A stretch of 64,000 bases of DNA from Candidatus Eiseniibacteriota bacterium (GCA_043819135.1 JBDRFG010000107.1:31002-95001), one strand, 5' to 3'. Shown: positions 27,145 to 62,659, numbered from the stretch's first letter. Notes: generated by a model from the letters alone, not told the origin. Translations and numbers: made by a program.

Positions 27145-27711
27145 CTGGCTCCCCGAGTGGGTCGGACTACTAACCGACGCAACGTCGCAGAGCCTCAGGT
27201 ATGGTTTCGGATTGTCCACGTCGCGGCACATGGTCACCACAACACACTTGGCGACGGCATGCGCGAACAGGCGGTCGAGGTTGCCTTGGGGCCGAAGGGG
27301 GCGTTCAAGAACGGCAACGCGGGTGCCGTGACGCGCCAGGTAACGGCGGATCGGGTCGTCAGTGCTCTACCGGAGCCCCGGGCCAAACCGAAACCGCCCA
27401 AGAAGCCTAGGACGCCTCGCGTGGTTGAGCTCCTACGGACGGCGATGGAATGGCAACGCCAGCTTGAAGCTGGTGAAGCGGACACGCAAATCGAGATAGC
27501 CCGACGGGAGAGAATCACTCGGGCTCGCGTGACCCAGATTATGGGGATGCTCCGCCTCGCGCCGGAGATTCAGGAGCACATCCTGTCCATGCCCGATATG
27601 GTCCGTCGGCCTGCGATTAGCGAGCGGGCGTTGCGACCCATCGCCCAGATCGAGGATCCGAGGCGGCAGCTTGCGGAGTTCCGAGATCTGTCTCCAGCAA
27701 GGACCTCATGA
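27145..27711 (+). CDS. HTH-containing domain of the kind associated with large serine recombinases; in frame with the att core (possible internal ATG 27259)
   Basis: AMEWQRQLEAGEADTQIEIARRERITRARVTQIMGMLRLAPEIQEHIL; frame open from the att core. Confidence 0.7.
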   Translation: MAPRVGRTTNRRNVAEPQVWFRIVHVAAHGHHNTLGDGMREQAVEVALGPKGAFKNGNAGAVTRQVTADRVVSALPEPRAKPKPPKKPRTPRVVELLRTAMEWQRQLEAGEADTQIEIARRERITRARVTQIMGMLRLAPEIQEHILSMPDMVRRPAISERALRPIAQIEDPRRQLAEFRDLSPARTS

Positions 27712-27816
27712 CTCCGTTGCCCCCACCATCAGCTGCAGGGTCTGCATCGTGTCGTCCGCGAGGCAAGTCCGGTCCTTCCGGCCTCCCCCGTTGCGCGCGG
27801 CGGTGGCATCTGCTAG

Positions 27817-28578
27817 TTAGCCACGTTCGTCATCTGCGCTCTCTTGCACCTGCCTCATCAGTTCTTTGAAGAACTCCCCGTGCTTCTCATCCACCACAAG
27901 TGGGTCCAGCCCGAACACGTCCGCCAACGTTTCGTGCGCCTTGAGGAGTGAGAGGGACGAGAGCGCGATTGTGCCCGCGGCGTCTCGACCGCGGAAAGTA
28001 GCGAACCGGAATCCTTGGAGCTCCTCCTCTTCATCGAGATCAAGATACTCGTGCAGCTCGCTTATCGACGAGTGTACCGCGGTACTCAGGAGCGTGTATT
28101 CTATGAGATACCAGTCGTGAAGACCCGCTTTGTGCGCTAGGGCTTCGGCGCTGAGGGGCGGTTTCAACTCATGCTCAGCGATGTTCTCCTGGATTTCCTT
28201 AACAATTTCCTCGATTCGCTGATCGCCCAACTCCGCCAGCGGTTTGCGCTCGCTCCCCTGCGATTTGCCGATGATCTTCAGCTTCCTGTGTTCGTCGGCT
28301 CCCACGTAGCGACGAAGCGTCTCCTCGTCTGCAGCAACGGCGCGAATCGTGAAGAGCGCCTCCATGAGAACGCGTGTGACTACCTGTGCCGGTGGGAGAA
28401 GCCCAACGTCCAACAAGAACGGGACGCCATGGTAGAGCTCGAGAATTCTCGCGTACAATGTAGACACGACAAGCTGACGAACGTCCTCTCCGGCAACGGT
28501 GAGACCCGAGAGAGCGGAGAAGCAATCGCGGCCGAGCTCCTTCGAGCGTGCCACTAACTCCTTAGTATCCCATCCCAT
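27817..28578 (-). CDS. DUF5677-like (HEPN-related) protein in a cassette-like unit
   Basis: VVTRVLMEA and YTLLSTAVHS motifs; RBS AAGGGAG upstream of ATG 28578. Confidence 0.65.
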   Translation of the reverse strand: MGWDTKELVARSKELGRDCFSALSGLTVAGEDVRQLVVSTLYARILELYHGVPFLLDVGLLPPAQVVTRVLMEALFTIRAVAADEETLRRYVGADEHRKLKIIGKSQGSERKPLAELGDQRIEEIVKEIQENIAEHELKPPLSAEALAHKAGLHDWYLIEYTLLSTAVHSSISELHEYLDLDEEEELQGFRFATFRGRDAAGTIALSSLSLLKAHETLADVFGLDPLVVDEKHGEFFKELMRQVQESADDERG

Positions 28579-28608
28579 CGGAACAGTAGCTCCCTTCGTA
28601 ACGAAGAC

Positions 28609-28682: not shown

Positions 28683-29399
28683 TCAGTATCCCCACTCCTC
28701 TCGCCGAACTGGCAGGCGGTTGAGCACCTCACGATGGAATTGCCACTTGGGCATGAACCGGTCCATCAGCGCAACGAAGCGGGCGTTGTGGGTCGGCTCC
28801 AGCAAGTGAGTCAGTTCGTGAACAACGACGTACTCGAGGCACTCCGGAGGCTTCTTGGCCAGCTCGGTGTTGAGGCGAATCGTGCGTGCCTTGCAGTTGC
28901 AGCTCCCCCACTTGGTCTTCATTCGCTGGACGAAGAGCCGCTCTGTCCTCACACCCATCAGCGGCTCCCATTTGGCGAGCAGCGGGAGCATGGCACTCTT
29001 AATCTGCGTGCGATACCATTCTTCCATGAGGGCTTTTCTCTTCTGGCCACCTGTTCGCGGACGCACCCTCAGAAGAATGCGGCTGTGCTTCAGCTCGACT
29101 GAGGGCGGCTCCTCGCTTTCGGAGACTCTTAGCAGGTAGCGCTTGCCCCACACGTGGTGGCTCTCCCGGTCCACGTACTCCCGACGTGTCTCGCGCTCTT
29201 GTTCTCGTAGTTTCGCCTGCTGCCGCTTAATCCAATCCAACTTGGAGACGGCGAAAGCGCGGATGGTGTCGAGGCTCATGCGCTTCGGGGCCGAGATGCG
29301 CACGCGGCCCGCCGGCGGGTAGACGCTGAGATGGATGTTCTTGATGTCTTTCAAGACGACGTCCACCACAATGTCACCCAGCTTGATCTGCGACACCAT
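28683..29399 (-). CDS. M48/YgjP (SprT-like) metallopeptidase associated with type I RM
   Basis: MKTKWGSC, YVVVHELTHLLEPTHNARF; coupled to hsdR. Confidence 0.9.
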   Translation of the reverse strand: MVSQIKLGDIVVDVVLKDIKNIHLSVYPPAGRVRISAPKRMSLDTIRAFAVSKLDWIKRQQAKLREQERETRREYVDRESHHVWGKRYLLRVSESEEPPSVELKHSRILLRVRPRTGGQKRKALMEEWYRTQIKSAMLPLLAKWEPLMGVRTERLFVQRMKTKWGSCNCKARTIRLNTELAKKPPECLEYVVVHELTHLLEPTHNARFVALMDRFMPKWQFHREVLNRLPVRREEWGY

Positions 29400-32300
29400 C
29401 AGTATTCCCTCTGGGCCTTGACTATGAGGAAGATGCGCTCGACTTCATCTTCACTCCGTAGAACATCGTAGAGTGCTCTCTTGATGACCTGCTCACGGGC
29501 TTGAACACCGCGCCATCCGTCCGGTTTCGACTTCCTGACCGCTTCGTCAATCCGCAGAGCCAGCTCCAGCACCTCGTCGTCGTTCCCCGCGCCGTAATTC
29601 TCAGGGGGTTCGCGGACTCCCCCAGTGTCACCGGACAATCTCCCTCTTCGCAGGTTGTTGTAGATCGCCCTCTTCCCGGGTGTGTCTAGTCTCTCGGGGG
29701 TGCCCTCCCCTATTCCGGCACTCACCTTCTCGGCTAGTTCCGAGATGTGCTTCAGATACTCCTCATACTCAATGGCTTTGGCCTTCCGTAGCTCGATGAC
29801 TTCCTGCAACTGTGTTGACATCTTCTCGAAGAAGGCCGGGTCGCTAAGGTGCTCCCTGATGATCGTCCTGCGGACATTGTTCTCAATGGTCTCAGCGATG
29901 GCATTCTCATTACCCTTCAAGTCGCCAAGCCGAGACGTGATGGCATCGGCAATACCGGTCTTCACAATCAGCTCCAGTAGACCCATGTCGTCGAAGGGTG
30001 AGATCTTCCTAGGCTCGTCCGCCTCAATGTAGGTGTCGATAAGGTGCCGCATGTCGGCCTCGTAAGCCTTGAGGTCCAGGCTCTCGCCGCTCGCTTTGCG
30101 GATGATCTCGCGAACGTCAAGGTAGTGGTCAACCTGTCGTCTGATTCGGCTGACATCGCCACCGCCATACCCGGCGGGCTCCAATTCGTCAGCGATGTTG
30201 GCAAAGGCGCGCATAAGGGCCACGGTCGCCTTGTAGAGCGCTGCCCGCTGCGGCTCTCGTTCCTGAAGGTCCGCCGGAATCTCCGTGTTGCCGCAGAAGT
30301 AGTGGATGTGCTCCAGCTCGCCCTTGGGTGGCTCCACCGATTCGCACATCAGAGCGAGGACTTCCAGAGCGTTATCGAGCCGCTCCTTCCCCTTCTTGAG
30401 GCGGTCCTGCAGCAGCACCTCGGGATCGGCACCGCCCGCGCTGTGGTCCAGCTCGGAGGTGTAGACAGCGATAGCATTCTCGACCTTCTTGAAGAGATCC
30501 TTGTAGTCCACGATGTGGCCGAAGTCCTTGTCCTCCCCGTCCAAGCGGTTGACGCGGCAGATGGCCTGGAACAGGCCGTGATCCTGCATGGACTTGTCAA
30601 TGTACAGATAGGTGCAGGGGGGGGCGTCGAAGCCGGTAAGCAGCTTGTCCACCACGATGAGCAGCTTCATGTTCGCCGGCTCCTTGGTGAACAGCGCTTT
30701 GGCCCACTCTTCATAGGTCTCGGTCTTGGTCATGCCTGGCTTGGCCTCGACGTCCTGCAGCAGCTCGGAGTAGGTATTATAGATGAACTGCTTGCCTGTC
30801 TCGGTGTTGGTCCCGGTCTCTTCCAGCGTCACGTCCCTGGCTTGCGGATTGTAGGAGGTCACGACAGCGCACTGACCCTTGAGCGGGGTCTTCTGGAACA
30901 AGTCGAAGTACTTGCACGCCTCGTAGATACTGGAGGCCACCAGGATTGCGTTGCCGCGCCCGCTGGACAGACGAGGCTTCACGCCGAAATCAAAGAAGAT
31001 GTCGTTCACCACGCGGTCCATGCGCGATCGGGAACTGAGCACGTTCTGCATTGTGCCCCACCGTCTCTTAAGCTCAGCCTTCTGCCAGTCGTTCAGCCCT
31101 CTCGTCTTGGCATCAAACCAAGCGTCGATCTTCTCTTCGGAACCGAGCCGCTGGTCGATGTCCCGCGCCTCATAGACTAGATCCAGTACGACCCCATCCT
31201 GCACGCCTTCGCTGAATTTGTAGGTGTGGATGTAGTTACCGAACACTTCCAAGCTGCTCTGTGCGTCCTTCTTCAGCAGCGGGGTGCCGGTGAAGCCGAT
31301 GAACACTGCGTTGGGCATCAGGGCCTTCATAGCCCGGTGCAGCTTACCACCCTGCGTGCGGTGGCACTCGTCCACGAAGACGAAGATCTCGCCCACGGTC
31401 TGGCTGTGCTGGGCCTCCAGTTCCTTGATGAAGGCGTCGAAGTCGTCAACGTCCCTGCGTCCGAACTTGTGTACCAGCGAGCAGAGAAGGCGCGGCTTGG
31501 CCTGGCCGAGCTGGCTCATGAGGTCGCGGCCGCTTCGGGTGCGCTTAATCGCCTCGCCCACCTCGGTGAAGACACCCTCAATCTGTTTGTCCAACTCGTC
31601 GCGGTCAGTGATGATGGCGACCCGGGCGTTGGGGTTACTCTCCAAGATCCACTTAGCGAGCAGCACCATCACGATGCTCTTGCCGCTGCCCTGCGTGTGC
31701 CAGATGATGCCGCCTTTCTTCTCACGCGCATGCGCCTGCGCGGCCTTGACGCCGAAGTACTGATGCACGCGCGGCAGCTTCTTCACACCGCCGTCGAAAA
31801 GCACGAAGTCGTACATCAGTTCGATGAGTCGGTCCTTTCCGCACATCCTCAAGAGGTACTTGTCCAGTTTGAACCGGCTATCGTCCGCTTCGTCTTCCTT
31901 CCACTTCATGAAGTACTTCTCCGGCGTCCCGATGGCGCCGTACCGCAGACCTTCAGAGTCATTCCCCGCGAAGATGAACTGCACTGTGCTGAAGAACCAG
32001 GCGTTGAACTCCGATTGCTGGTTCGAGAGGCTCTGGCGGATGCCTTCGCATATGCTCACGCGGCTGTTCTTCAGCTCGAGCACCCCAACGGCGATGCCAT
32101 TCACATACAGGACGATGTCGGGTCGCCGCTCATGATCCCCCTTGAGCGTCACCTCCTCGGCGATGGCGAAGTCGTTCTTATCCGGCTCCCGCCAATTGAC
32201 GATGTGGACGGTCTCAGTCAGCTTGCCAGCCTCGATCTTCACGGGAACGCCGTAGCGCAGCAAGTTGTAGACGGCCTGGTTGTTGCCGTAGAGCGTACGA

Positions 32301-32521
32301 CTGTGGTTGTCCGCCTCCGCACGAAGCCTATAGAGAGCAGCGGCTATCTGCGCGGGCGTGTAGCCGCTCTTGGTCAGCCACTCCGATATCAGACCCTCCT
32401 CGATGTTGCTGTTGCCGTCTCGGTAGGTCCAGTCGCCGAGGTAGCGGTAGCCCAGTTCGTCGCTGAGGAGAGCTACAACCCTGTCCTGCGTAGCGCGTTC
32501 GGGTCGGCCGAGGGTGCTCAT
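29399..32521 (-). CDS. hsdR: Type I restriction endonuclease subunit R
   Basis: RPDIVLYVNGI-ELK, WHTQGSGKS, DECHR, FTGTP, LLTGFDAP, QAICRVNR. Confidence 0.97.
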   Translation of the reverse strand: MSTLGRPERATQDRVVALLSDELGYRYLGDWTYRDGNSNIEEGLISEWLTKSGYTPAQIAAALYRLRAEADNHSRTLYGNNQAVYNLLRYGVPVKIEAGKLTETVHIVNWREPDKNDFAIAEEVTLKGDHERRPDIVLYVNGIAVGVLELKNSRVSICEGIRQSLSNQQSEFNAWFFSTVQFIFAGNDSEGLRYGAIGTPEKYFMKWKEDEADDSRFKLDKYLLRMCGKDRLIELMYDFVLFDGGVKKLPRVHQYFGVKAAQAHAREKKGGIIWHTQGSGKSIVMVLLAKWILESNPNARVAIITDRDELDKQIEGVFTEVGEAIKRTRSGRDLMSQLGQAKPRLLCSLVHKFGRRDVDDFDAFIKELEAQHSQTVGEIFVFVDECHRTQGGKLHRAMKALMPNAVFIGFTGTPLLKKDAQSSLEVFGNYIHTYKFSEGVQDGVVLDLVYEARDIDQRLGSEEKIDAWFDAKTRGLNDWQKAELKRRWGTMQNVLSSRSRMDRVVNDIFFDFGVKPRLSSGRGNAILVASSIYEACKYFDLFQKTPLKGQCAVVTSYNPQARDVTLEETGTNTETGKQFIYNTYSELLQDVEAKPGMTKTETYEEWAKALFTKEPANMKLLIVVDKLLTGFDAPPCTYLYIDKSMQDHGLFQAICRVNRLDGEDKDFGHIVDYKDLFKKVENAIAVYTSELDHSAGGADPEVLLQDRLKKGKERLDNALEVLALMCESVEPPKGELEHIHYFCGNTEIPADLQEREPQRAALYKATVALMRAFANIADELEPAGYGGGDVSRIRRQVDHYLDVREIIRKASGESLDLKAYEADMRHLIDTYIEADEPRKISPFDDMGLLELIVKTGIADAITSRLGDLKGNENAIAETIENNVRRTIIREHLSDPAFFEKMSTQLQEVIELRKAKAIEYEEYLKHISELAEKVSAGIGEGTPERLDTPGKRAIYNNLRRGRLSGDTGGVREPPENYGAGNDDEVLELALRIDEAVRKSKPDGWRGVQAREQVIKRALYDVLRSEDEVERIFLIVKAQREY

Positions 32522-33714
32522 ACGAGACGAATCCTCCCCGTGAGCAGTTCCTGCATCATGCCCTGCTTGAGGTTGCGCGCCTTCGTGAGCTTCGCTTCCA
32601 GTGCAGCGATACCGTCGTCCATGTCGGAAAGGACGGCAGCTATGGCGGTCTGTTCGTCTTCGCTCCGAGGCATCTCGATGCCAAACCCCTTCACATCCGT
32701 TGAGTTGACGGAATCAAACGTCGAACCCCTAGAGAGCCTCGCCCAAGCAGGCTCTTTGGCGATTAGGGCGTGGTAGAGGAAGTCGTTTGCGTGGCGGATG
32801 GCACACACGCCTCGACCGAGGCAGACATCGAACAAGGCGCGCGAGATGCCTCCCACTGGAGCACGAACAGACATAAGGATGTCGCCACACCGACCTCTCT
32901 TGGTGATCTCGGCTGTAAACACTCGTTTGATGGTCCTGCGGTTTCTGATGTCCGCGTTTCCCTGAATCAAAGGCAGTCCTTCACCCCTGTTGTTGTAGTG
33001 TCTTGAGCTTGGCGACTGACCCATTACGATTTCGGCCACTTCCCCCAGCGGCTTCGACACCCACTCCCCGCCGAAACCCAACAGGCGCTTCTTGCCGGTG
33101 AGTAGCTCCTGCATCGCGCCGTACTTGATATGACGCTTCTTGGTGAGTAGCTGCTCCAAGGACTCAATCAGGGTATCCGCATCGCTCAGCGCCTCAGTGA
33201 TGGCTTCTTGCTCGGCTTTCGTGGGAGGGAGTGGAATGGGGACTGTCTCGAGCTTGTCTTTGGGAAGATGAGCAATGCTTGTTTGCGTGACGAAGCTTAG
33301 CAGAGACCCATTTGACGCGAGCCGCAGGAGAACATAGTGCATCAGCGTGACGCTGTATTCGCGTCTCGGTCTTAGACGATGCAACGCCTTCTGGTAGTAG
33401 CACTCCTCAATAGGCTCACGCCAAACCGCACAACGCCCAACCTCTCCTCCCTCGCAGACAAGTAGATCACCGGCACGAAGCCTGAAACGCAGAAGATCGG
33501 ATGGTGTCAGCTTGACAACACCAAGATCAACTACGTCAATCCGCCCCCATTGAACAGCACGGTTGCCCAAGAAGGGCTTCGGTACGCCAACGTTCTTCTG
33601 AGAATCGAGCATCTTGCCCAGCTGGATGGAGAACTCGGCGCCAACCTCCGTGACCTCCCAATCCTCCGGGATCAGCCCTACCTCTGTCCGCTTGAATCCG
33701 GCTATCACTTCCAT
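32518..33714 (-). CDS. hsdS: Type I RM specificity subunit
   Basis: IPEDW, EQEAITEALSD / EQTAIAAVLSD, two MQELLTG repeats. Confidence 0.95.
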   Translation of the reverse strand: MEVIAGFKRTEVGLIPEDWEVTEVGAEFSIQLGKMLDSQKNVGVPKPFLGNRAVQWGRIDVVDLGVVKLTPSDLLRFRLRAGDLLVCEGGEVGRCAVWREPIEECYYQKALHRLRPRREYSVTLMHYVLLRLASNGSLLSFVTQTSIAHLPKDKLETVPIPLPPTKAEQEAITEALSDADTLIESLEQLLTKKRHIKYGAMQELLTGKKRLLGFGGEWVSKPLGEVAEIVMGQSPSSRHYNNRGEGLPLIQGNADIRNRRTIKRVFTAEITKRGRCGDILMSVRAPVGGISRALFDVCLGRGVCAIRHANDFLYHALIAKEPAWARLSRGSTFDSVNSTDVKGFGIEMPRSEDEQTAIAAVLSDMDDGIAALEAKLTKARNLKQGMMQELLTGRIRLV

Positions 33715-36410
33715 GAGAAGCCCATCTTCTCGAGGTGACGGTTCACCTTGGCCTCCAGGTCGGCCACGCGGCTCACCATCTGCGGCAACGGGTCTTCGTA
33801 GCGTTCGGCCAGTTCCCTAACGCGGAGGGCAAGTTGCCGGCTGACGCGATTCATCTCACCCCGTACGGCGACATCGAGTGCAGTGAGCCACTTGTCGTCC
33901 GCAACCAGCATCTTTGTCTGAGACTCGGTGAGCTCCGGATACCTAGCGTAGACCCGAGCGTCTAGGTCGGCCCTGGCCTCCTTGATGCGCTTCCTGAGAT
34001 CGGCCTCGTCGGCATTGAGCTTCAGCAACTCGCTGAGCACCTTGAGTTCGACAAGTTCCTCGTTGTCTGGATCCCGCTGAAGGAGGAGAGCGATCTCTTT
34101 CTGCGCACTCTCAAACAGCCGTTTCGTTTCCACCTTTGAATCCCGTGCGGCTTCGGCGGCGTCAAGATACTCGCTCAGAGTGCTTCTCTCAGCCGAGTTC
34201 TGCGTTGACTTCGCCCTCTTGCTGACCGCCGCCTTGGTGATATTGCCCCTGCTATTCCTCAACGCCTGCAGGCGGGAGTCATCCTTCAGCTCTGCGACTC
34301 GAAGCGCGTTCGCCTCTCGCAGTTCGGTGGCTTTGCGGAACGCATCATACTCACCAGGGTTGAATCTGCTCCAGGCAGACTCCAGTGCCTCGTTCCACGC
34401 CGCTTGGGCATCGGTCTTGTTGGCAACCGTACAGAGAATGCCCTCATCCCCACCGTGCTCTTCCTCCAGCTCAGTGATCTTCGCGGTGATGTCCTCCAAA
34501 TCGGCCGCGAGTTGATCGATGTCTTCCTGCTCGCTGGCAAAGTAGCGGGCGACAATGAGAGCCTTGGGAATGAGGTCACAAGTCCAACCCTTGTCCCTCT
34601 CCTTGCCCTTCTTGTCCGTGACAAGGACACGCGTGGTTTCGGCCTGCCATCCGTCGGCGGCGACGAGGTAGCAGTCATCCTGCATGGTCTCGTCCCAGTA
34701 GTCCATCAGGCACTGATAGATGTCGTAGGGATCGACGAGTGACTTGCCAGCATAGTGGGCAAGCAGGCCCTCGGACAGTGCAGTGATGACCTCCTTGGGA
34801 TGGCAGTCGACCGTCAACGCCTTGAGCGGCGCGGCGTTCGTCCGCCGCCACGCGGCGAAGTGAGCGTTCATGTCAGCGGCGAACGAGGTGAATTCGGGGT
34901 GCTCATAGATGGCGGACTCGATGTCCGGCTTCTCCAAGCAGAGATTGACGTAGCCGGGGCGGCTTTCTTCGAATAGGGTGTGCCGGAGCTGCGGGCAGAC
35001 GGCCCAGTAGTGCTGCAGCGCGTCGATTTCGGCTGCGGGGATGCCGCCCTGTAGGTGGCCTGCGATGTCCTGCAGGTCCTCGGGAGTCTGGCTGTCGATG
35101 TAGCGCGGCAGGTTGAGGTTGAACTCGTTTTGCTCGATCTCCGTGAAGGGGACCATGCGCGAGTACTTCGGGACGTCGAGTCGTTTGTTGAAGACATCCA
35201 CAATCTTGTGTATGTCCCGGGAGCGCAGACGGTTCTTCGGACCTTCCTTCATGAAGCCGCCGCTGGCATCAATCATGAAGATGCCCTTGCTGGCCTGGGC
35301 GTCCTTCTTGTCTATGACCACGATGCAGGCGGGAATACCGGTGCCGTAGAAGAGGTTGACGGGCAGGCCGATGATGCCCCTGATGTAGCCCTTGCGCACG
35401 AGAGCGCGGCGGATGTCGGCTTCGGCGTTGCCGCGAAACAGCACACCGTGAGGCAGGATGCACGCACCCTTGCCGGTGCTCTTCAGGGAGCGGACGATGT
35501 GCAACAGGTAGGCGTAGTCACCCTGTCTAGTGGGCGGCACGCCAAAGGACTTGAAGCGCTCGAAGGGGTCACTCCGAGGATCGAGGCCGTTGCTCCAGCG
35601 CTTGTCGGAGAAGGGCGGATTAGCGACGACGTAGTCGAAGGTCTTGAGAGTGTCGCCGTCCTTGAACTTGGGATTGGCCAGCGTGTTGCCCTGCGCGATC
35701 AACGCGGTCGGGTTGTTGTGCAGGATCATGTTCATCCGTGCGAGGCCGCTGGTGGCTTCGTCTTTCTCCTGCCCGTAGAGCGTGACGGCAGTGCCAGCCT
35801 CGTCGCCAACCTTCAGAAGCAGCGAACCTGAACCGCAGGTGGGGTCGTACACGGTGGTGGAGGCGCTGGTCTCCGCGTCTCGGATGCCGCTGATCTGCGC
35901 CATGATGCGGCTGACCTCGGCGGGAGTGTAGAACTGCCCCTTGCTCTTGCCGCTTTCGGTGGCGAAGTGGCGCATCAGATACTCGTAGGCGTCACCCAAG
36001 ATGTCATCGTCGTCAGCTCGGTTCTTGGAGAAATCGAGCGCGGGGTTCTCGAAGATGGCGACGAGGTTTGTGAGCCTGTCCACCTTCTCCTTGCCGCTGC
36101 CGAGCTTGGCGGCGTCATTGAAGTCCGGGAAACCGGAGAGCTTGTTGACATTGGCCAGTGGGGCGATGATCTTCTTGTTGATCTGGTCGCCGATGTCGCT
36201 CTTGCCCTTCAGGGCGACCATGTCCGCGAAGCTGGCGCCGGGCGGGATTGTGATAGGCGCGTATCGCTGACCGGCGTACTTGTCACTGACGTACTTGATG
36301 AAGAGCAGAACGAGGACGTAGTCCTTGTACTGGCTCGCATCCATGCCGCCGCGGAGCTCGTCGCAGCTCTGCCACAGAGAGCTATAGAGCTCGGATTTCT
36401 TCAGGGCCAT
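33705..36410 (-). CDS. hsdM: Type I RM methyltransferase subunit, long form
   Basis: GQFYTP, YDPTCGSGSLL, VANPPF, LPHGVLFRG. Confidence 0.97.
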   Translation of the reverse strand: MALKKSELYSSLWQSCDELRGGMDASQYKDYVLVLLFIKYVSDKYAGQRYAPITIPPGASFADMVALKGKSDIGDQINKKIIAPLANVNKLSGFPDFNDAAKLGSGKEKVDRLTNLVAIFENPALDFSKNRADDDDILGDAYEYLMRHFATESGKSKGQFYTPAEVSRIMAQISGIRDAETSASTTVYDPTCGSGSLLLKVGDEAGTAVTLYGQEKDEATSGLARMNMILHNNPTALIAQGNTLANPKFKDGDTLKTFDYVVANPPFSDKRWSNGLDPRSDPFERFKSFGVPPTRQGDYAYLLHIVRSLKSTGKGACILPHGVLFRGNAEADIRRALVRKGYIRGIIGLPVNLFYGTGIPACIVVIDKKDAQASKGIFMIDASGGFMKEGPKNRLRSRDIHKIVDVFNKRLDVPKYSRMVPFTEIEQNEFNLNLPRYIDSQTPEDLQDIAGHLQGGIPAAEIDALQHYWAVCPQLRHTLFEESRPGYVNLCLEKPDIESAIYEHPEFTSFAADMNAHFAAWRRTNAAPLKALTVDCHPKEVITALSEGLLAHYAGKSLVDPYDIYQCLMDYWDETMQDDCYLVAADGWQAETTRVLVTDKKGKERDKGWTCDLIPKALIVARYFASEQEDIDQLAADLEDITAKITELEEEHGGDEGILCTVANKTDAQAAWNEALESAWSRFNPGEYDAFRKATELREANALRVAELKDDSRLQALRNSRGNITKAAVSKRAKSTQNSAERSTLSEYLDAAEAARDSKVETKRLFESAQKEIALLLQRDPDNEELVELKVLSELLKLNADEADLRKRIKEARADLDARVYARYPELTESQTKMLVADDKWLTALDVAVRGEMNRVSRQLALRVRELAERYEDPLPQMVSRVADLEAKVNRHLEKMGFSWK

Positions 36411-36718
36411 GTGCGATTCGCTCCTAGGACGGCGGGTCCTTGTGTCGTGTCCCTAGATTCGACGGCGTCTGACCTGTTGAGGAGCTTCAGATCTTGTCCG
36501 CATCTCGGCGACTTCCTATCGGAAACGATACCAGCCGCTGATGCTCTGCTTCAATCTGACTGCTTCACAAGTCGAGTTCAGCTCCCATAGCGGCTGTTGT
36601 TAGCGCTCGGCTCTCATCTTGCGCAAGCCAGAGCCCTGGATGACCTGTCTCCCGATTATATGCCCCCCACCTTCTGGTTGTCGAGTCTGTCCGGAGGTGC
36701 TACCACCCGCACGTCGCT

Positions 36719-37576
36719 TCAGGATTCTCCGAGCAACCTGCTGATCCAGAGCAGGGACTCAGGGTAGTCCTCGGCATCCAGCACAAACTCCTGTCCTCTT
36801 CCGACCGTACGCAGCCTCACCCATTCGCCAAGCTCCTCCCAGCGGCCGCGAGACGCATGATAGCTCAGCACCGAGTTCCGCCCACGTGGGCTGAACCACG
36901 CCGGCAGCTTCCACACGCTCCGCGTCTGCCCGGGTTCCGTCAGCTGCAGCCTCGGGCTGTAGTCCCCAAGGATCCCTGCCCCGTGGACACCTACGTCGCG
37001 ACCGTCGACTGTGGCTTGGGCAGCCGAAACGTAGACCACGTCCTTCGAAGGGTGCGTCTTGCGACTCGCGTGAGGATGGTACCTCGCCCAGGCCGGCATT
37101 ACGCCTGTGTCCGCAGCGCTCACGACTCTGTCAACCTGGAGCCACCCAAACAGCATGTGAATATCGGGAGACCCGGAAGCGTATCTGAGTTCCCCTTTGA
37201 AGAGCTCTGTCTGTCTGAACCATCCGTAGAACAGGAACAGATCTCCGGCGCCCACTCCCATTCCCTCCAGATGGCTTTGGGCGGAGCCCGATTGCCCGAA
37301 CAGAGGGCGCCAGCCAACTTCTCTCTCCAGGCTGTTGCTGTCGAGGTCAGGATCCAAGTGCGCCAGGCTGTCTGCTGGGACTCTGCCTCGAGAGAGTCTC
37401 TCGACGACCGCACCTAGGTCAAATCCGTCACACGAGATGGAGCTAAAGGGTACCGAGCCCGAGTCCTCTGACCGGTCTGGAATCGGAAGTGAGCACAGTC
37501 GTCCGGATGGCAGAATGGGACTTGGAATCCCGCCGGAAGATGAGTCGAATCCCTTCCTGCTGAGGATGATCTTCAT
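36719..37576 (-). CDS. Nucleotide modification-associated domain 3 (Nmad3) protein
   Basis: MKIILSRKGFDS...PSPI...LPIP, HLDPDL, GDLFLFYGWF, RGQEFV. Confidence 0.8.
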   Translation of the reverse strand: MKIILSRKGFDSSSGGIPSPILPSGRLCSLPIPDRSEDSGSVPFSSISCDGFDLGAVVERLSRGRVPADSLAHLDPDLDSNSLEREVGWRPLFGQSGSAQSHLEGMGVGAGDLFLFYGWFRQTELFKGELRYASGSPDIHMLFGWLQVDRVVSAADTGVMPAWARYHPHASRKTHPSKDVVYVSAAQATVDGRDVGVHGAGILGDYSPRLQLTEPGQTRSVWKLPAWFSPRGRNSVLSYHASRGRWEELGEWVRLRTVGRGQEFVLDAEDYPESLLWISRLLGES

Positions 37577-38136
37577 CCGCTGCAACGCCTCTTCCTATGG
37601 ACTTGAAGTGACGACTCCAGACCGTCCCCGCAGGGTGCTCCGTGCTGACCGATCTCCCAACTAGACTCAAGCCAGCCGGCGAAGTCGCGTATGAACTCCT
37701 CTGTGAAGTCGCTGCGATGTCCTGGCCCGCGTTTCTCGAAGGGATGACGGAGGTTCCCTGCAGGCAAGCCACTCAGGTCGGGTGCGTTGCGGCCGAAGTA
37801 GTAGAAGAAGGAGGAGATTAGCGCGTAGCGCTCATGCAAATGTGCGTCTCTCGCCTCGTTGTCTCTCCGTCCTCTGAACCTAGCGTCTTGGTGGTACTCT
37901 CTGAGTGTTGGCTTCTCCTCGACGCGCATCGCGTATATGAGCTTGCCATGTCCCGCACTTACTCGTAAGTCTGCTCCACTAGTTCCCGCGACCCAATCGC
38001 CGACTTCTGCAAGCTCTATGATGTTCTTCCGGCCTCGGCGGCCACACTTGCACTTCGCGAGCGTGCAGAATCCTCCCGCAGGGTTTGGGGCATATCCGAA
38101 GTCGTGCTGAACGACATATGAGAAGAGCTTCGACAC
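37573..38136 (-). CDS. Nucleotide modification-associated domain 2 (Nmad2) protein
   Basis: FSYVVQHDFGYAPNP..CTLAKCK, GDWVAG, LIYAMRV, FYYFG; ATGA overlap with Nmad3. Confidence 0.8.
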   Translation of the reverse strand: MSKLFSYVVQHDFGYAPNPAGGFCTLAKCKCGRRGRKNIIELAEVGDWVAGTSGADLRVSAGHGKLIYAMRVEEKPTLREYHQDARFRGRRDNEARDAHLHERYALISSFFYYFGRNAPDLSGLPAGNLRHPFEKRGPGHRSDFTEEFIRDFAGWLESSWEIGQHGAPCGDGLESSLQVHRKRRCSG

Positions 38137-38940
38137 CGCGCTTTCCGTTGTCAGGATTCGGTCCAGCCTACTCGTCTTCTTCGGGAAGCAGAGTCCTCTC
38201 TTTGCTGCCCTGCTCTCCCATCCGCTCAGCCCACAGCGCCCTAGCGCACAGGCGCGCAAACAAGCGCTCTGCTGCTAGCAGGTCCGCTGGTTCGTCCACG
38301 TGTATGCACTTCAAGCGTCGCCGGATAGAGAATCTGTCCGATGCGCTAGACACTCCTGTCCCCCCTCCGTCCGAGGGTGAGTTCGGCTGCCGCCACAGGT
38401 CCGAGCAACGCTCCACTTGGCAGAAGACCCAATCGTCCCATTAGCTGCGCAGCCAATCCGTGGTGAAGTCACACTGCGGAATCAGCGGCGGCAAGCGGAG
38501 CACGATCAATACACGAACAGCTTGGCCAGTGTCGGCCGTATTGGAGTCACCGGTTCCGACACCCCCACGATTACGGCGGTGCGGGTGAGAAAGCGACCAG
38601 CTCGTGGGATCGCCAGTCCGGCTCCTCGCGGCTGGGGAAGAAGCTGGTCCAGCATGTTCAGCTCTGAGATGAGGTTGCTCTGGGAACCGCGCTCCACAAG
38701 GCACTGGGACTCGAAGAGACACATCGAACGCGCGGCTGCCTAGTGGAGTCCTTCACAATCGTGGGGGAGCGAGTCTCAGCCGGAGAAGCCGCTTCCGTAG
38801 CGTCATGGGCAAGAGCGAGCACAATCCCTCATGTGGCACAGAACTCAAGCATCGACAAAGCCGCTCCTGTTGCTGCACTGACAGGTACCCTCTGCACCTC
38901 TTCATCTTTCGGCTCAATCCTAGTGAGTCCCTTCTCCCAT

Positions 38941-46992: not shown

Positions 46993-46995
46993 GTC

Positions 46996-47559: not shown

Positions 47560-47647
47560 GGTGGGCCGGTTGGGTTAGAGAATGAGCAGACTGCCACAAA
47601 CAGGCTCGCAGGCTCCATGCGCTAATCAGGCTGCGGCACGCCCCGCT

Positions 47648-48700: not shown

Positions 48701-49900
48701 CTAGAGCTGCCCCAGCTGTCCCTGGGCCGCGCGCCAGGACAGCGCGATGGAGATCAAGGCGAACCCCATCACCCGACGAAGTGCGGCCCGGTCACTCATC
48801 AGGTCTAGCTGTTCCTCAACCACGTGCATCATAGAGTTGCGGAGTCTGTAGGTGACATAGAGCGCAGATGCAGATGCGTCCACGCGCCGGGTTGCGCTGC
48901 CGAATCGTGCCAACTCTGTCTTCACCAGGTAGTTGAGTGTGCTCGCCTGATCCCATTTGCTGCCAGAGTACTGCTTCTCAATCGAGTTGAACGCGCTTGC
49001 GAGAGCCTTGTTCAACTGAATCATCTTGTTCAACTTCGGTCTTAGAGTACCGCCGCCCCCACCCTGCCAGTGAGTCAGGTTGCTCTCGAAGGAAACCAGC
49101 AGATCTGCGAGCGCTCGGACACGCTGAAGCTTGGCAGCATGAGAGTCAGGCCCGAGCTCGAGCGAGCGCGCTCTCCAGAATCCGAACAGCATCAGAATCG
49201 CGTCAGAGGCGCGCTGCGACAGGTGCTCCACCAAACCCACGAACTCCGCGTCAGTCAGCTGGGCGCCGAGCGCTGCACGATAGTCGCTCCCGTTCTCGCG
49301 CTGCAGGATCGGAAGCAGGTCATCCATTAGGAGTCTCTTTGCGATTCCCTGCCCCGTGATCAGCGCGCGCCCGGGAGTCCTGCCTGATAGCTCATCTTCA
49401 TCACCTGCAGCGTCGATGTACTGGGCGGCTTGGACGAGGTCTCCTACTTTGAAGTGGCAGAGCCCCACGTTGTAGAGGGGAGCACCCTTGTGTATGCGCC
49501 GGCCAATCCTCTGCTCTGACTCGGCTGTCAGCTGATGGAGACACTCAGTCCAGATCATGATCGGCAGAGTTAGGAACTCATGGTGGTCAATCGCGACGTC
49601 CACCAGTGCAGTGTGCGGAGCGAAGAGTGAGTCATCGTTGTTGCGCCATCTCTTCGCCTCGAGCTGCTTGAGGTTGCATGCAACCAAGCCACAAAGCTCC
49701 ATACCAAGCCGCTGCATTCTTCTCTCAGCCCCAACCAGGTGGGCTTCGAGCATAGGCACCGGATCAAGCCCTCGGCGTGTCCGTCGTGTGACGATTGCGA
49801 TAAGCCGACGAAACCGGACGTACTTCCGGAGACCGATTGTCTCAGCGAGAATCCGTGTTCCCAATCCTACATCTAGCTTCATCGGCCTGTAGGTGGTCAA
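48701..49900 (-). CDS. Hypothetical protein with TPR-like segment and C-terminal HEPN-like RxxxxH motif
   Basis: LYNVGLCHFKVGD; YRLRNSMMH; GGAGG RBS before TTG 49900. Confidence 0.55.
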   Translation of the reverse strand: MTTYRPMKLDVGLGTRILAETIGLRKYVRFRRLIAIVTRRTRRGLDPVPMLEAHLVGAERRMQRLGMELCGLVACNLKQLEAKRWRNNDDSLFAPHTALVDVAIDHHEFLTLPIMIWTECLHQLTAESEQRIGRRIHKGAPLYNVGLCHFKVGDLVQAAQYIDAAGDEDELSGRTPGRALITGQGIAKRLLMDDLLPILQRENGSDYRAALGAQLTDAEFVGLVEHLSQRASDAILMLFGFWRARSLELGPDSHAAKLQRVRALADLLVSFESNLTHWQGGGGGTLRPKLNKMIQLNKALASAFNSIEKQYSGSKWDQASTLNYLVKTELARFGSATRRVDASASALYVTYRLRNSMMHVVEEQLDLMSDRAALRRVMGFALISIALSWRAAQGQLGQL

Positions 49901-50967: not shown

Positions 50968-52668
50968 TCAGCTTGTCCGGGATTTCTTGGTGAACTCGTA
51001 CCCAAGCCTGTCGAGTGAGAACTCAGGCTTCACCCAGTCAAACGGCTGAGAGGTTAGAGCGACAATGAGGCTCGGCTGGTAGCGCCCGGTGTATCCGATC
51101 TCCTTGAGAATCGATCGCACTGCTAGGTCTCTCAGGTGATTGGTGGTGTGATATGCGATTTCGACCTCACGGGAGTCCTTGGCCTCTAGCAGCGCTCCAT
51201 GCATTGCCTTTCCCCTGAAAGCACTCAGCAGCCGCTCCCAGGTCTTGAAGTCGGGATGCCAGGGAGATCTCTCATAGGCGGAGCAAACAATATCAGCATC
51301 GGGAAACTGCTCGTGGCGGATGAGAGCGGTGACAGTCTCCCCAAAACTGGCGCGTGGCCCCCTGAACGTGCTAATCTGACCTGCGACGAGTTCGAACGCG
51401 TCTGCGCGCTCGGAGGCACCGTCCTTCCTCGCTTTGGCCGCCAGCTTTTCAATCGACTCTTGCGCCCCGTCGATGATCTTGAACAGCGCTCTTTTTCCGC
51501 CCTTGCTGCCCATCGATGGCACCTTCCTGACGTGAAGGCTCTCGCACAGCATCTCGATTGCCACTGCGGCGTGCCGCAGTCCATCGTCTAGCGTTCTGGC
51601 CCCATAGTGGCCGCTAAGGACGATGTTCCTGGCTGCCGCATGCAGGGGATCACGTTTCAAGTGGGTCGCCTGCAACCACCTGGTTAGCAACTGCCCGGTG
51701 CCCCGATGCACTCCTTCATCAATGAAGCGGTAGCCCTTCGAGTAGCATGGAAATCCACCGGTGTGGTAGCGAGCGGAGATCTGCCCCTCAGCATCGCGCA
51801 GCTCGATCCAGGCAGGCCGCACTTCTACTCCCGTGGCAAGCGAAAGCGCCAGCGTCAGACCAAGCGGTACCCAGGAGTACACATCCTCGACATCCTCAAG
51901 TCCCTCAGGTACGCGACCAACCATGACGGCCGTGACAAGCCCGCGTGCGGTGCCGCCGAGTAGCCGCGACTTCCGATCTGCGTAGTCTGAGAGCGGTTCG
52001 ATGAATGCAAGCTCACCGGAGTACTCGAAGCCAATCAAGCGGTTCTGGAGCGCAGAACGAACCCACTCAGGATCCCGTTCCCCTCCCTCTGGGCCAATTG
52101 GGGTCTCATGAGTCTGGTTGATGCGAAGGACGTGACTACCGACACCAGGTTCGTGTGGCCTGAACTCAGAGACGAAGTTCACCAGTGGAATGACCCAGTA
52201 AGCTGGTCGGCCAGCAGAATCAGCCGTGAACCTCGAACGAAGTGGTTGGAAGCGAAGCCGCGTCCCATCACCGAATGTGGGGGCGTAGTCGAAACCTGAG
52301 GTGATCTCGAATACCCCGTCTGGTGTGTCGATCTTCACGGCGGTGCCACTGCGAGGACTCGCCTTCAAGGGCATGCGCGTGCCACGCTTGATAGCCTTTG
52401 GCTCTCCTCCGATGAGGACGGCCAAGATGTCGTGTCTGCAATCCTCGCTCGATTGCGAGGGATCGACTTCGAGAGTCAGCGATAGGATTCCGAACTCGTC
52501 GAGCGAGGCGGTAGCCTCGCCCCGGACACTGCAGCTTGGATCTCCGAGGACGACAGTACCAATACCGCTGTACGTCGGCCAGGCATCGAACCAGCACTCT
52601 GACATACTCCGTGTCCTCGTGCCAAGCCGGCGTCTGCACCAGGTCAAGATGTCAATAAGACGGCACAT
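50968..52668 (-). CDS. Hypothetical protein resembling ApeA-like beta-rich N-terminus plus HEPN domain
   Basis: LSLATG, VAIEML, C-terminal FRGKAMHG (RxxxxH). Confidence 0.55.
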   Translation of the reverse strand: MCRLIDILTWCRRRLGTRTRSMSECWFDAWPTYSGIGTVVLGDPSCSVRGEATASLDEFGILSLTLEVDPSQSSEDCRHDILAVLIGGEPKAIKRGTRMPLKASPRSGTAVKIDTPDGVFEITSGFDYAPTFGDGTRLRFQPLRSRFTADSAGRPAYWVIPLVNFVSEFRPHEPGVGSHVLRINQTHETPIGPEGGERDPEWVRSALQNRLIGFEYSGELAFIEPLSDYADRKSRLLGGTARGLVTAVMVGRVPEGLEDVEDVYSWVPLGLTLALSLATGVEVRPAWIELRDAEGQISARYHTGGFPCYSKGYRFIDEGVHRGTGQLLTRWLQATHLKRDPLHAAARNIVLSGHYGARTLDDGLRHAAVAIEMLCESLHVRKVPSMGSKGGKRALFKIIDGAQESIEKLAAKARKDGASERADAFELVAGQISTFRGPRASFGETVTALIRHEQFPDADIVCSAYERSPWHPDFKTWERLLSAFRGKAMHGALLEAKDSREVEIAYHTTNHLRDLAVRSILKEIGYTGRYQPSLIVALTSQPFDWVKPEFSLDRLGYEFTKKSRTS

Positions 52669-60750: not shown

Positions 60751-60946
60751 AAGTACAACACACCGCTTATGCCCGGCGTCAAGCGCTTTCCTAACGTCCC
60801 CCGTTGGGTCCTGCCCACCCCTTTACGTGTAGGTGACACGGGCCGCCTTCTCCAGGGCCCCGGGAATCCCCTTGATGAGGATGGCCACCAGAGGTAGAGC
60901 TGTACCTGGGACGCGACGTAACTCACATACTCACAGGAGGTTACGG

Positions 60947-62659
60947 TTGAAACAGGCCCCCAGGGGCCGCGGGAGACCCAAGGCGAACGGGCGCACCGAC
61001 CCCACCCGCGTTTCCTTCTACACTCGCATCTCGACCGATGAGGACCACCAGAAGTACTCGCTGGATGCTCAGAGAGACCGGCTCGAAGCCTACTGCAAGG
61101 CCCAGTGGGGCGACGACTGGCGCATCCACAGGATCTACCGCGACTCCGAGAGCGGCACCCACATGAATCGCCCCGGCCTCGAGGAGATGCTCTACGATGC
61201 TGAGTCGGGTGCCTTCGACACTCTTCTCGTGTTCCGTGTGGACCGGCTATCGCGCAAGGTCCGCGAGCTCGCCCTGATGGTGGACGAGCTCACCAAGTAC
61301 GGCGTCGTCCTGAAGTCCATCACCGAGCCCTTCGATACCGCCAACGCCGCAGGGAAGATGATGCTCCAGATGCTCGGCGTCTTCGCGGAGTTCGAGCACG
61401 CGACAATCGTCGAGCGGACCAGGGTAGGAATGGAGAGGAAGGCGAAGAGTGGGAGGTTCGTCGGAGGGACCATACCTTACGGCTATGACCTCAACCCAGA
61501 AGAAGGGCTCACCGTCAGGGAGGACGAGGCCCTCATCGTCAGGAAGATCTTCCAGATGTACGCCCTGGGCCATGAGGGCTCACACACGATTACCCTCAAG
61601 CTGAACGAGACCGGTCACCGGAAGCGGAGCGGCAAGAAGTGGGACAAGCGTGTCGTCCTTCACATGCTCAAGAACCCTCTCTACGTTGGGAAGCTCCGCT
61701 GGCGGAAGGTCGTCTACGAGGGTAACCACGATGGGGTAGTCTCAGAGGCCATCTTCGAGAAGACCCAAGAAATCCTGAAGGAACGTGCTGAGGATCTAGC
61801 CGGCCGCCGCTTCCACAACGGCGACGAACGCCTGCTGGCAGGGATCATCAAGTGCGCCCGATGCAAGAGCCACATGGTGGGCGTGAGTACTCACAAGAAG
61901 GAGAAGAAGTACCCCTACTACCTGTGCAACAAGCGCTGGAGCACAAAGGACTGCGACCAAGACTACGTCCGGGCCGACCTACTGGAGAGCGCAATCATCC
62001 AGGACGTGAAGGGTATGTTCCGCGACGAGCAATTCATGGCCCGACTCTGGGAGGAGGCCAACCGACTGCTCTGCGCCGAGAAGCCGAACCTCGAGCGGGA
62101 GATCGAGAGCGTCGAGGCTCAGATCGCGAAGGCCCGGGCCACCATCGACCGCTATTTCGAGGCCTTCGAGGCAGAGACCATGAAGCCCGAGGTTTGCATG
62201 GAGAAGGTCGATGATCTCAACGCCAAGATGGAGCAACTCGAGAACGAGAGGCGCGACCTGGAGGAGAAGCGCCAGCGACTTGACCTCCCCGCTCTTGACA
62301 AAGAGATGCTCGCGCGGCTTGTGGACAACTTCGAGGAGGTCATGGCGGCGGGGACGAACCCACAAAAGAAGGACCTTCTCCGCCATCTGGTGAAGAAGGT
62401 CCTCGTTCACGACAAGCGCACGATCGAGATCTGGTACGCGTTACCGAACCAGGCCTCTGTTCGCACACCGGGACATCTGGCTCCCCAAGGCGGACTCGAA
62501 CCCGGGGCTATCGCGCTACCGGCGCTATCGCTCCCCCAGCACCAACTCCACGTGCGCGCGCGCCGCGTCGAGGCACGCGCGGGCGGGGTCATCGGTCCAC
62601 ACGGCCGCGGCGACCCGCTCGCCCGCCACCACGGCGCCGCCCGGCCCCTCGATCCCTAG
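60947..62659 (+). CDS. Large serine recombinase (resolvase + recombinase + zinc ribbon/coiled coil) reading through the att site
   Basis: YTRIST, RPGL, RVDRLSR, PYGY, NPLYVG, CARC...YYLC; AGGAGG RBS before TTG 60947. Confidence 0.95.
   Translation: MKQAPRGRGRPKANGRTDPTRVSFYTRISTDEDHQKYSLDAQRDRLEAYCKAQWGDDWRIHRIYRDSESGTHMNRPGLEEMLYDAESGAFDTLLVFRVDRLSRKVRELALMVDELTKYGVVLKSITEPFDTANAAGKMMLQMLGVFAEFEHATIVERTRVGMERKAKSGRFVGGTIPYGYDLNPEEGLTVREDEALIVRKIFQMYALGHEGSHTITLKLNETGHRKRSGKKWDKRVVLHMLKNPLYVGKLRWRKVVYEGNHDGVVSEAIFEKTQEILKERAEDLAGRRFHNGDERLLAGIIKCARCKSHMVGVSTHKKEKKYPYYLCNKRWSTKDCDQDYVRADLLESAIIQDVKGMFRDEQFMARLWEEANRLLCAEKPNLEREIESVEAQIAKARATIDRYFEAFEAETMKPEVCMEKVDDLNAKMEQLENERRDLEEKRQRLDLPALDKEMLARLVDNFEEVMAAGTNPQKKDLLRHLVKKVLVHDKRTIEIWYALPNQASVRTPGHLAPQGGLEPGAIALPALSLPQHQLHVRARRVEARAGGVIGPHGRGDPLARHHGAARPLDP
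62478..62502 (-). other. Isolated tRNA 3' fragment (T-loop, acceptor strand, CCA) forming the B' arm of the right att site
   Basis: Minus strand GGTTCGAGTCCGCCTTGGGGAGCCA; no anticodon or D arm adjacent; Asn- or Gln-type end. Confidence 0.75.

Follow-up and report, generated by a model that had tools for sequence, protein, structure and literature searches.

The subject of this analysis is a stretch of 64,000 nucleotides from Candidatus Eiseniibacteriota bacterium (GCA_043819135.1 JBDRFG010000107.1:31002-95001; hereafter the window), which belongs to a genome (G000) of 174 contigs that is 92% complete. Positions 27145-62486 of the window are probably an integrated mobile island of about 35.3 kb, the attachment site (attP) of which would lie within its own large serine recombinase (LSR) gene, between the canonical enzyme and a module of 185 amino acids (aa). 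That the gene is split in this manner is well supported by the comparison of related sequences. It is also supported that the integrated and joined states encode different proteins, i.e., 513 aa followed by a 57-aa tail read from host DNA in the former, and 698 aa in the latter. Both ideas had been put forward in an earlier, sequence-only reading of the window, and they are now backed by fused homologues, by a natural junction in the contig L085, and by the reading frame in two other islands, L023 and L031.

A recombinase gene interrupted by its own attachment site

The 10-mer CTGGCTCCCC is present at 27145-27154 and at 62477-62486; the bases adjoining the two copies are unlike, so that the repeat is exactly 10 bp long. 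At the right end, the open reading frame (ORF) of the LSR (60947-62659, + strand) starts with TTG at 60947, with AGGAGG 8 nt upstream, encodes 570 aa, and passes through the right core as CTG GCT CCC C. At the left end, an ORF on the same strand (27103-27711) reads RVLAPRVGRTTNRR across the left core in the same frame as that of the LSR. A sigma-70-like promoter was not found in 26850-27350, and the in-frame GTG codons at 27103 and 27142 lack a ribosome-binding site recognizable by eye; expression of the left-end fragment by itself seems improbable. The earlier account of the two cores, of a left ORF that shares the frame of the LSR and has no convincing start, and of a 570-aa integrated form with a 57-aa tail and a 135-bp antisense overlap was confirmed by the sequence and, for the start, by the promoter scan. 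Joining of 60947-62486 to 27155-27711 by script then gave the anticipated 698-aa form, as 698 codons and a stop without internal stops, and shifting of the C part by 1 or 2 nt resulted in a stop 58 or 5 codons past the junction, respectively. The parts of the split gene and of its attachment sites are as follows.

27145-27154, + strand: left core copy (attL), CTGGCTCCCC, at which similarity among module homologues begins.
27155-27192, + strand: P' arm of attP and the linker encoded by it (RVGRTTNRRNVAE), which aligns with the L085 junction and is predicted to be disordered (predicted local distance difference test, pLDDT, 52-58).
27193-27375, + strand: beta subdomain (residues 31-91 of the module protein P0001), with strands 33-38, 53-62, and 73-81 (pLDDT 56-77), holding all predicted contacts with the LSR.
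27415-27711, + strand: ParB/Noc-like helix-turn-helix (HTH) domain (residues ~105-196), 6-residue C-terminus, and stop, assigned by the AlphaFold model, Foldseek, and phrog_14161.
60947-62486, + strand: N part of the LSR, 513 codons, with catalytic domain, recombinase domain, and zinc ribbon with coiled coil, assigned by Pfam, NCBIfam, and the SPbeta alignment.
62451-62476, + strand: P arm of attP, within the LSR 3' end, placed by comparison with junctions.
62477-62486, + strand: right core copy (attR); the related LSR contig of run X5 ceases to match at 62486.
62478-62502, - strand: B' arm of the used site, a fragment resembling the 3' end (acceptor and T-arm) of tRNA-Asn; compared by eye with the antisense tRNA-Asn 3' end of L005, it agrees at 21 of 25 positions, and ARAGORN and Rfam call no tRNA here.
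62487-62659, + strand: tail of the integrated form, 57 codons and stop, from host DNA, overlapping the ORF 62525-63634 (- strand) by 135 bp.

The first 513 residues are a complete LSR (i.e., catalytic domain, DNA-binding domain 1 (DBD1), and DBD2 with coiled coil), because they contain the Pfam domains of such enzymes and align to the SPbeta integrase. Matches above the Pfam cut-offs were obtained for Resolvase PF00239 (E 1.4e-42, residues 24-170), Recombinase PF07508 (2.2e-19), and Zn_ribbon_recom PF13408 (2.8e-15). Weak coiled-coil-like matches fall at residues 375-464, and residues 74-488 align to residues 69-511 of the 545-aa SPbeta integrase. The block Y25-R27-I28-S29-T30, in which S29 is presumably the serine nucleophile, is at least 90% conserved among 100 sequences. 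Among NCBIfam models, the top matches were CcrB and CcrC, far below the cut-offs. Integration at a look-alike of the tRNA-Asn 3' end would permute the gene circularly, leaving the N part at the right end of the island and the C part 35 kb upstream at the left end, and only the joined form, in an excised circle or at a tandem junction, could encode the 698-aa protein.

Fused homologues, natural junctions, and two reading frames

A search with the left ORF for longer proteins gave 12 matches among 3062 candidates: 4 full LSR+module proteins, 7 truncated proteins of the same layout, and 1 weak match. Uninterrupted LSR+HTH homologues, the search for which had been proposed as a check, therefore exist, and they range from 650 to 740 aa. 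All three LSR Pfam domains are followed by the module in P0004 (740 aa), P0005 (678 aa), P0007 (650 aa), and P0011 (690 aa). The LSR part of P0011 is 62% identical to that of the window; the LSR parts of P0004, P0005, and P0007 are just 23-24% identical to it, and their modules 54-59%.

A natural junction was found in L085, which measures 3458 bp, comes from another genome, and encodes an LSR with 81% identity to that of the window. This contig reads ggacatCTGGCTCCCCgagtg, which is the very junction predicted by the sequence-only reading, and past it is collinear with the left end of the window through the module and about 90 bp beyond the module stop, i.e., into the island interior. Shared cargo beside the L085 module was considered and rejected: the ORF after the module is unlike the DUF5677 gene of the window, and just those ~90 bp are common. 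L023 and L031 each carry both island ends together on a single contig, arranged as in the split state, and in either island the frame is preserved when the two are joined at the core.

Which frame this DNA core is read in depends on the lineage: it gives either W-L-P-(K/E)-C-N-S-I-R or (L/M)-A-P-(R/Q)-..-T-N-R, and both frame classes converge on EPEVWFRI.H after linkers of unequal length. LSR ends can be divided in the same manner (CNKWLP and RTPGHLAP), and N and C parts are of the same frame class in each listed island (the copies in the window's own genome, L085, L023, and L031). The left ORF recurs twice in that genome, on C172 (67% identical) and on C50 (64%, with one in-frame TAG), and similarity begins at the core in both copies. 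The genome also contains a second LSR, 57% identical, at the edge of contig C42 (L005, G000:C42:1-2461), which ends in KWLLR three codons past TGGCTCCTC, at a point inside the 3' end of a tRNA-Asn(GTT) gene read antisense. The C42 LSR and the C172 and C50 modules are all in the W-L-P frame, and the genome has at least one further element of this LSR+module family. The C50 module (L003) adjoins the start of an IS3-like transposase (MEKPKRYSPEVRERAVRL, by eye).

A large family nearly always seen in the split state

Module homologues are numerous: 3332 representative clusters were found at E <= 1e-3, 486 at E <= 1e-10, and 70 at E <= 1e-30, and the best 150 clusters all encode 86-365 aa. Of 79 module loci, drawn from genomes that represent species of many phyla, a single one (L072) has a frame that stays open from the module upstream into an LSR, and an LSR segment lies directly upstream of the module in six (L017, L040, L051, L072, L080, and L085). 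Seen from the other half, 1282 of 8000 candidates scored were LSR relatives at E <= 1e-30, and the module is missing in 118 of the best 120, with lengths of 393-592 aa (median ~515). The C-termini of these 118 were sorted by regular expressions as follows.

41 of 118: L-A-P frame, antisense-tRNA tail (GLEPAT.., LRLTAGCST..)
23 of 118: W frame, antisense-tRNA tail (..DSNLRP..)
18 of 118: W frame, stop <= 6 aa from the core
8 of 118: L-A-P frame, other tail
5 of 118: W frame, other tail
5 of 118: runs on into the P' arm or module, one of them (P0278) tRNA-like by eye
6 of 118: unclassified C-terminus
12 of 118: no recognisable LSR end

Antisense-tRNA tails accordingly occur in at least 64 of the 118 close LSR relatives, and ARAGORN called tRNA-Asn(GTT) at two LSR ends; by our own reading, based on TTAAC-derived residues, the tail motifs as a class derive from tRNA-Asn. 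These sequences point to a large LSR family that integrates at the extreme 3' end of tRNA-Asn genes or look-alikes and is nearly always seen split. Another conserved C-terminal extension (IQRHFGTLSPADVDELVEGVADLVV) takes the place of the tRNA tail or module in the close LSR relatives P0216, P0224-P0226, P0228, P0232, and P0281.

The integration site

The island's own site appears, from its sequence, to be a tRNA-Asn look-alike rather than an intact tRNA gene. The tail had earlier been described as read from an antisense tRNA fragment; the match of 21 of 25 positions to the tRNA-Asn 3' end by eye upholds the resemblance, and the sequence is indeed a fragment only, with no tRNA called. No tRNA was found anywhere in the window, either island end included, by ARAGORN or by Rfam at the gathering threshold and at E <= 10. 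The arrangement of a tRNA-gene-targeting island, with an intact tRNA at one end and a displaced fragment at the other, is absent here and present in the relatives L005 and L056 (tRNA-Asn). A structured tRNA-like minihelix was also considered and dropped, as folding gave z of +0.09 to +1.27 for the fragment in the right flank and for the equivalent fragments of two relatives.

A related LSR end on a contig of run X5 matches the window exactly to 62486 and then diverges, which fits a crossover at the core. The arms of attP show dyad symmetry in several cases: 16 of 20 positions match at the natural L072 junction (reached by 0 of 2000 shuffles), and 12 of 20 match at the natural L085 and L040 junctions and in the combined C42 and C172 arms (equalled by 18, 8, and 15 of 2000 shuffles, respectively). 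The flanks were compared with those of 40 relatives. Of these, 11 share the right flank, and the left flank gave no usable match in this search for an empty site. In one relative, G003 (L011), the window's core and B' arm adjoin the orthologue of the ORF 62525-63634, and the ~890 bp to the left are free of ORFs of 100 aa or more; this locus is only suggestive of an empty site, because left-flank homology is absent.

Several further features of this spot were observed. In G002 (L010), the flank of which is 93% identical, TGGCGGGGCCGACGAGACTCGAAC stands in place of the window's core and tRNA-like arm; the ~50 nt between the stop of the 62525-63634 orthologue and the next hairpin vary among relatives; and the left neighbour differs in the window, G002, and G003, so the spot turns over. 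At L056:10300-10640, a module fragment (residues 53-171) is deletion-fused to the last ~70 LSR codons, which read into tRNA-Asn(GTT), and the element interior is lost.

The detached module

The module consists of the linker encoded across attP, a three-stranded beta subdomain, and a ParB/Noc-like HTH. An AlphaFold model of the module protein P0001, built from 92 sequences, had a mean pLDDT of 81 and a predicted template modelling score of 0.60. Residues 1-32, i.e., the part encoded across attP, are disordered in the model, and a Pro/Lys-rich link joins the beta subdomain to a helical domain at residues 106-196 (pLDDT 95-99). The top 10 Foldseek matches were all Noc or ParB, over 87-104 columns with root-mean-square deviations of 1.8-4.8 A (1.8-2.1 A for the six 87-column Noc rows) and E values of 0.01-0.05, none reaching 0.001. 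The Pfam HTH_ParB model scored 19.6 bits, under its cut-off of 22.6, and the module profile matched ParB in the Protein Data Bank at E 0.054-0.25. As this likeness is sub-threshold in both sequence and structure, the domain is called ParB/Noc-like and not a member of the ParB family. The ratio of nonsynonymous to synonymous substitution rates (dN/dS) among split module copies was 0.23-0.30 in 9 comparisons, and the fragment has therefore been kept as coding sequence.

Homologues of the module also occur in viruses. Of 78 viral loci from IMG/VR, 4 are close copies of the split type. The HTH half alone (residues 88-185) matches phrog_14161 at E 1.6e-12, a family labelled 'recombinase' by association and without a described function; the four viral small proteins that were tested all match it as well, at 1e-14 to 1e-20. 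The viral cassettes comprise an LSR of 526-576 aa followed by an HTH protein of 129-156 aa (L097-L172). The module thus seems, from these sequences, to derive from, or to have given rise to, a conserved LSR partner protein, which here forms one ORF with the enzyme and has attP in the linker.

Predicted docking and a possible role in directionality

Serine integrases are prized in genome engineering, since their reaction is strictly one-way until a separate directionality factor is added. The base of the coiled coil is the region near which directionality factors bind (PMC11722253); in Ccr-type LSRs, that site may be blocked by C-terminal beta strands lying on DBD2 (PMC12286644), and direction has been switched by engineered fusions of an integrase with its recombination directionality factor (RDF) (PMC5737554). 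For LSRs with C-terminal extensions, the question has been raised of how reversal is achieved by elements that have no known factor (PMC12286644).

The sequence-only reading had proposed that the module sets directionality. We predicted a complex of the 513-aa LSR with module residues 29-202, using alignments made for this analysis, and obtained interaction prediction scores from aligned errors (ipSAE) of 0.73, 0.74, and 0.72 from three runs, against 0.00 for the highest-scoring of 3 controls. A mark of 0.73 is reached by 116 of 157 solved complexes and by 2 of 215 mismatched pairs. At least 87% of the contacts were common to the runs, and the pLDDT of the partners was at least 74. The predicted contacts join LSR residues 339-378, 447, 483, and 487-499 with module residues 31-41, 58-68, 74-79, and 84-91. 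The tightest pairs are between LSR 492-498 and module 34-40, where the module strand VWFRIVH lies on the last LSR strand, TIEIWYA. The beta subdomain is accordingly predicted to sit on DBD2 (the zinc ribbon), beside the helix leading into the coiled coil. The docking near the coiled-coil base is the part of the directionality proposal that has gained support, as a prediction; the remainder is inference. The associated suggestion of a free domain made from ATG 27259 gained no support: that methionine is unique to the window copy among 8 aligned, and the product would be devoid of strand 33-38, which makes the closest predicted contacts.

Because the beta subdomain is predicted at a site where directionality factors act, the two forms of the enzyme would differ in direction. 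We tentatively suggest, as plausible though short of probable, that the full-length and shortened enzymes differ in the att pairs recombined or in reversibility, and that integration locks itself in by severing the module. The beta subdomain would extend the last DBD2 beta hairpin and the helix at the coiled-coil base; the full-length enzyme from the circle would integrate the element; integration would end full-length synthesis, leaving a canonical LSR unable to reverse the reaction unaided; and reversal would need the module, or the full-length enzyme of a sister element, in trans. Possible, although doubtful, is the more specific idea that the module is a built-in directionality element connected and disconnected by recombination, which, whether attached or acting in trans by beta-strand complementation, would occupy the DBD2/coiled-coil factor site and alter the att pairs joined.

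Contrary evidence and other explanations

Several observations weigh against this account and need to be set beside it. With respect to the island itself, CTGGCTCCCC occurs 5 times in the window, always on the + strand (1251, 22805, 25307, 27145, and 62477), with 0.22 expected; the repeat alone therefore cannot define the island, and comparison does. The window's own arms show only 10 of 20 dyad matches, equalled by 268 of 2000 shuffles, and neither a circle nor an empty site was demonstrated for this island by the searches of reads and relatives. The L085 copy is damaged: a TGA interrupts the frame five codons past the core, and 69 codons of the module are deleted without a shift of frame. 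The expectation that related islands keep the frame, which held for L023 and L031, failed for L040, where the core is read as W-L-P on the LSR side and as L-A-P on the module side, out of frame with each other (2860-3060), and for L080, which is frameshifted; L017, L051, and L056 are remnants. We guess that L040 is a hybrid junction of two different elements, maybe in tandem. The agreement of frames within islands is partly inherited, and the counts are therefore no independent evidence of selection.

With respect to the function of the module, the docking supports binding of the module to the LSR without demonstrating binding or activity, and the likeness to ParB lies below curated or usual thresholds. 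In 68 of the 78 viral loci, a distant LSR (25-34% identical) is directly followed by a small gene on the same strand that is homologous to the HTH half of the module and always in another frame; as the partner gene is separate in these loci, fusion is dispensable for the module's role. A phage partner co-translated with the integrase fits poorly with a simple directionality-factor role, and the toleration in L085 of a stop between LSR and module argues against such a role too.

These points lead to another explanation, which we regard as possible but equally doubtful, namely that the module is a separate LSR accessory protein and its fusion incidental, so that the circle makes the partner with, or as part of, the integrase and the chromosome silences it by severing it from promoter and start; integration would then decide whether the partner is produced, and not which isoform. 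The job of the module may then be DNA binding at the element, such as autoregulation or tethering of the circle, and not control of the coiled coil. The two-gene order in 68 of 78 viral loci, the 4-bp stop/start overlap in 7 of 14 viral cassettes examined (by a first-start rule), the matching of phrog_14161 by the window module and by 4 of 4 viral small proteins tested, the stop in L085, the ParB/Noc DNA-binding fold, and the lack of a promoter-like site at the left end all agree with this explanation. However, in-frame fusions recur in divergent LSR backgrounds, and the predicted contacts on DBD2 and the coiled-coil base come from the beta subdomain, not from the HTH. An incidental fusion also overlaps with the directionality explanation more than it excludes it.

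An unlikely alternative is that the shortened enzyme is inactive, as in the archaeal SSV type (PMC8371274), and that the island is trapped unless a sister element supplies the full-length enzyme. The genome does contain a second LSR and three module copies, and decayed remnants are common (L017, L051, L056, L080, and C50 with its TAG). Nevertheless, the N part retains every domain that LSRs need and aligns to SPbeta integrase residues 69-511 of 545, and the catalytic and DNA-binding domains stay together, unlike in the SSV type.

Rather less probable is a relic, i.e., an island that is fixed and no longer cycles, with the open joined frame left over. No public sequencing run contains the window stretch (the best share of sampled words was 0.16), and the contigs of four runs yielded no junction for this element, just pieces of related LSRs, which is uninformative on excision either way. 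The failure of the searches to find a circle or an empty site for this copy, its position at a tRNA-like fragment and not at an intact tRNA, and the additional core copies just upstream would suit a relic. Against these stand the intactness of both gene halves, the constraint on the module (dN/dS 0.23-0.30), and a G+C content still distinct from that of the flanks. Lastly, a coincidental 10-bp repeat and common frame, with a left ORF unrelated to the recombinase, could appeal to the weakness of a 10-mer found 5 times in the window as evidence, but is already refuted by the fused homologues, the natural junction, the frame kept in other islands, and the predicted docking.

Island content and other copies of the core

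The G+C content is 0.56-0.64, mostly 0.58-0.61, inside 28-61 kb, and 0.61-0.68 outside. The island interior was annotated as follows.

27712-60946, strand unassigned: cargo and replication genes of lower G+C, identified by a Pfam scan, i.e., DUF5677, YgjP-like, type I restriction-modification (hsdR/S/M), Nmad2/Nmad3, ParB_N-fused methylase, DUF4238, PrimPol/DUF3987, DUF669, and AAA_24.

The cargo at 29399-38259 and 45373-48571 resembles a defence set (hsdR, hsdS, hsdM, Nmad2, Nmad3, ParB_N-fused DNA methylase, and DUF4238). Large island ORFs without a Pfam match are located at 40434-42911, 42791-44050, 44047-45054, 48701-49900, and 50968-52668.

The 9-mer of the core occurs 30 times in the genome, where ~20 are expected. 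A repeat search of 26000-63500 did not place the 10-bp core among the 20 largest repeat families, because 10 bp is too short to stand out alone. Two of the upstream core copies belong to a perfect 33-bp direct repeat (GCTGGCTCCCCACGGTGGACGTGTTTCGAACTC; 22803-22835 and 25305-25337) that flanks an alpha-amylase gene with a type IX secretion system (T9SS) tail, and a 30-bp copy of this repeat is present on contig C172 (L096). On the same contig, another repeat containing the core (TGGCTCC[CT]C followed by GGGTTGGTGTC and, one base on, CAGAGCGTGG) is present three times, each time 3' of a hairpin and downstream of a large ORF. Rfam gave no match to the C172 repeat at E <= 0.1. In run X5, a related LSR 3' end is fused at the core to this second repeat. 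The core-bearing repeats at 22803, at 25305, and on C172 may represent alternative attB sites, pseudo-attB sites, or traces of past insertions.

Significance and comparison with known systems

If the module is indeed a directionality element, the circular or inserted state of the island would be written into the specificity of its enzyme, and nature would have its own equivalent of the engineered integrase-RDF fusions, in a tRNA-Asn-targeting family of more than 1000 members. In this large natural family, the reaction removes and restores a module predicted on the factor-binding site, which offers a natural experiment open to direct testing by means of three proteins and four att pairs. As regards annotation, hundreds of 'recombinase family proteins' that end in unusual C-termini would be integrated-state truncations, and orphan HTH ORFs at tRNA-gene flanks their other halves.

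A literature search for a serine integrase spanning attP, which did not cover most subscription journals, returned the archaeal and Mx8 cases only; DsiB is a further published case. The sequence-only reading had listed the SSV-type precedent, which stands, and had left out Mx8 IntP/IntX and DsiB (PMC3146451); the finding is therefore less new than it had implied. What the present analysis contributes is an identification of the detached part and of its relatives, both fused and in two genes, together with the two frames in which the junction is read, the targeting of tRNA-Asn by a very large family, and a specific, testable docking site. It also qualifies the statement that self-disrupting recombinases occur only in archaea (PMC8371274), as DsiB and Mx8 do likewise, and the statement of 2014 that serine integrases were not known to target tRNA genes (PMC4383910).

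The closest precedent is DsiB, the CcrB-like serine recombinase of the ssrA-specific islands of Dehalococcoides, the overlap of which with its att site was noted in 2011 (McMurdie et al., PMC3146451). As here, a serine recombinase (~540 aa in DsiB) lies at the island edge, with its 3' end always over the att repeat and antisense into a tRNA-like gene, and the integration module includes a ParB-domain protein, a methylase, and a primase-domain protein. In contrast to DsiB, for which the accessible text describes neither a 3' fragment nor a fused form or domain, the missing part was found here, with 185 aa, a fold assignment, fused homologues, and a predicted docking. The target also differs, being ssrA for DsiB and tRNA-Asn or a look-alike here.

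The bacterial Mx8 IntP/IntX likewise has attP inside the integrase coding sequence and acquires a new 3' end on integration, which alters the properties of the enzyme without inactivating it (PMC6070905, PMC4383910). It differs in using tyrosine chemistry, the chemistry here being that of a serine enzyme, and in swapping a C-terminal stretch of the enzyme and not a docking-plus-HTH module. The archaeal integrases of the SSV1 type share attP in the integrase ORF and int(N) and int(C) at opposite ends, and SSV chimeras arise by exchange of halves (PMC8371274, PMC7253208). Those are tyrosine integrases in which the catalytic domain is split off and two inactive pseudogenes result, whereas the whole canonical enzyme, a serine recombinase, is intact here.

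The Ccr recombinases of SCCmec resemble the present LSR in having a C-terminal extension on DBD2 (PMC12286644) and supply its top NCBIfam matches (CcrB and CcrC, below cut-off); their extension is fixed, in contrast to the one described here, which would be removed and restored by recombination. The phrog_14161 proteins, finally, share the HTH half and, by eye, an N-terminal beta-strand-like segment, and are always beside an LSR. Unlike the module of this island, each is encoded by its own gene in a different frame, and the att site does not separate that gene from the LSR.

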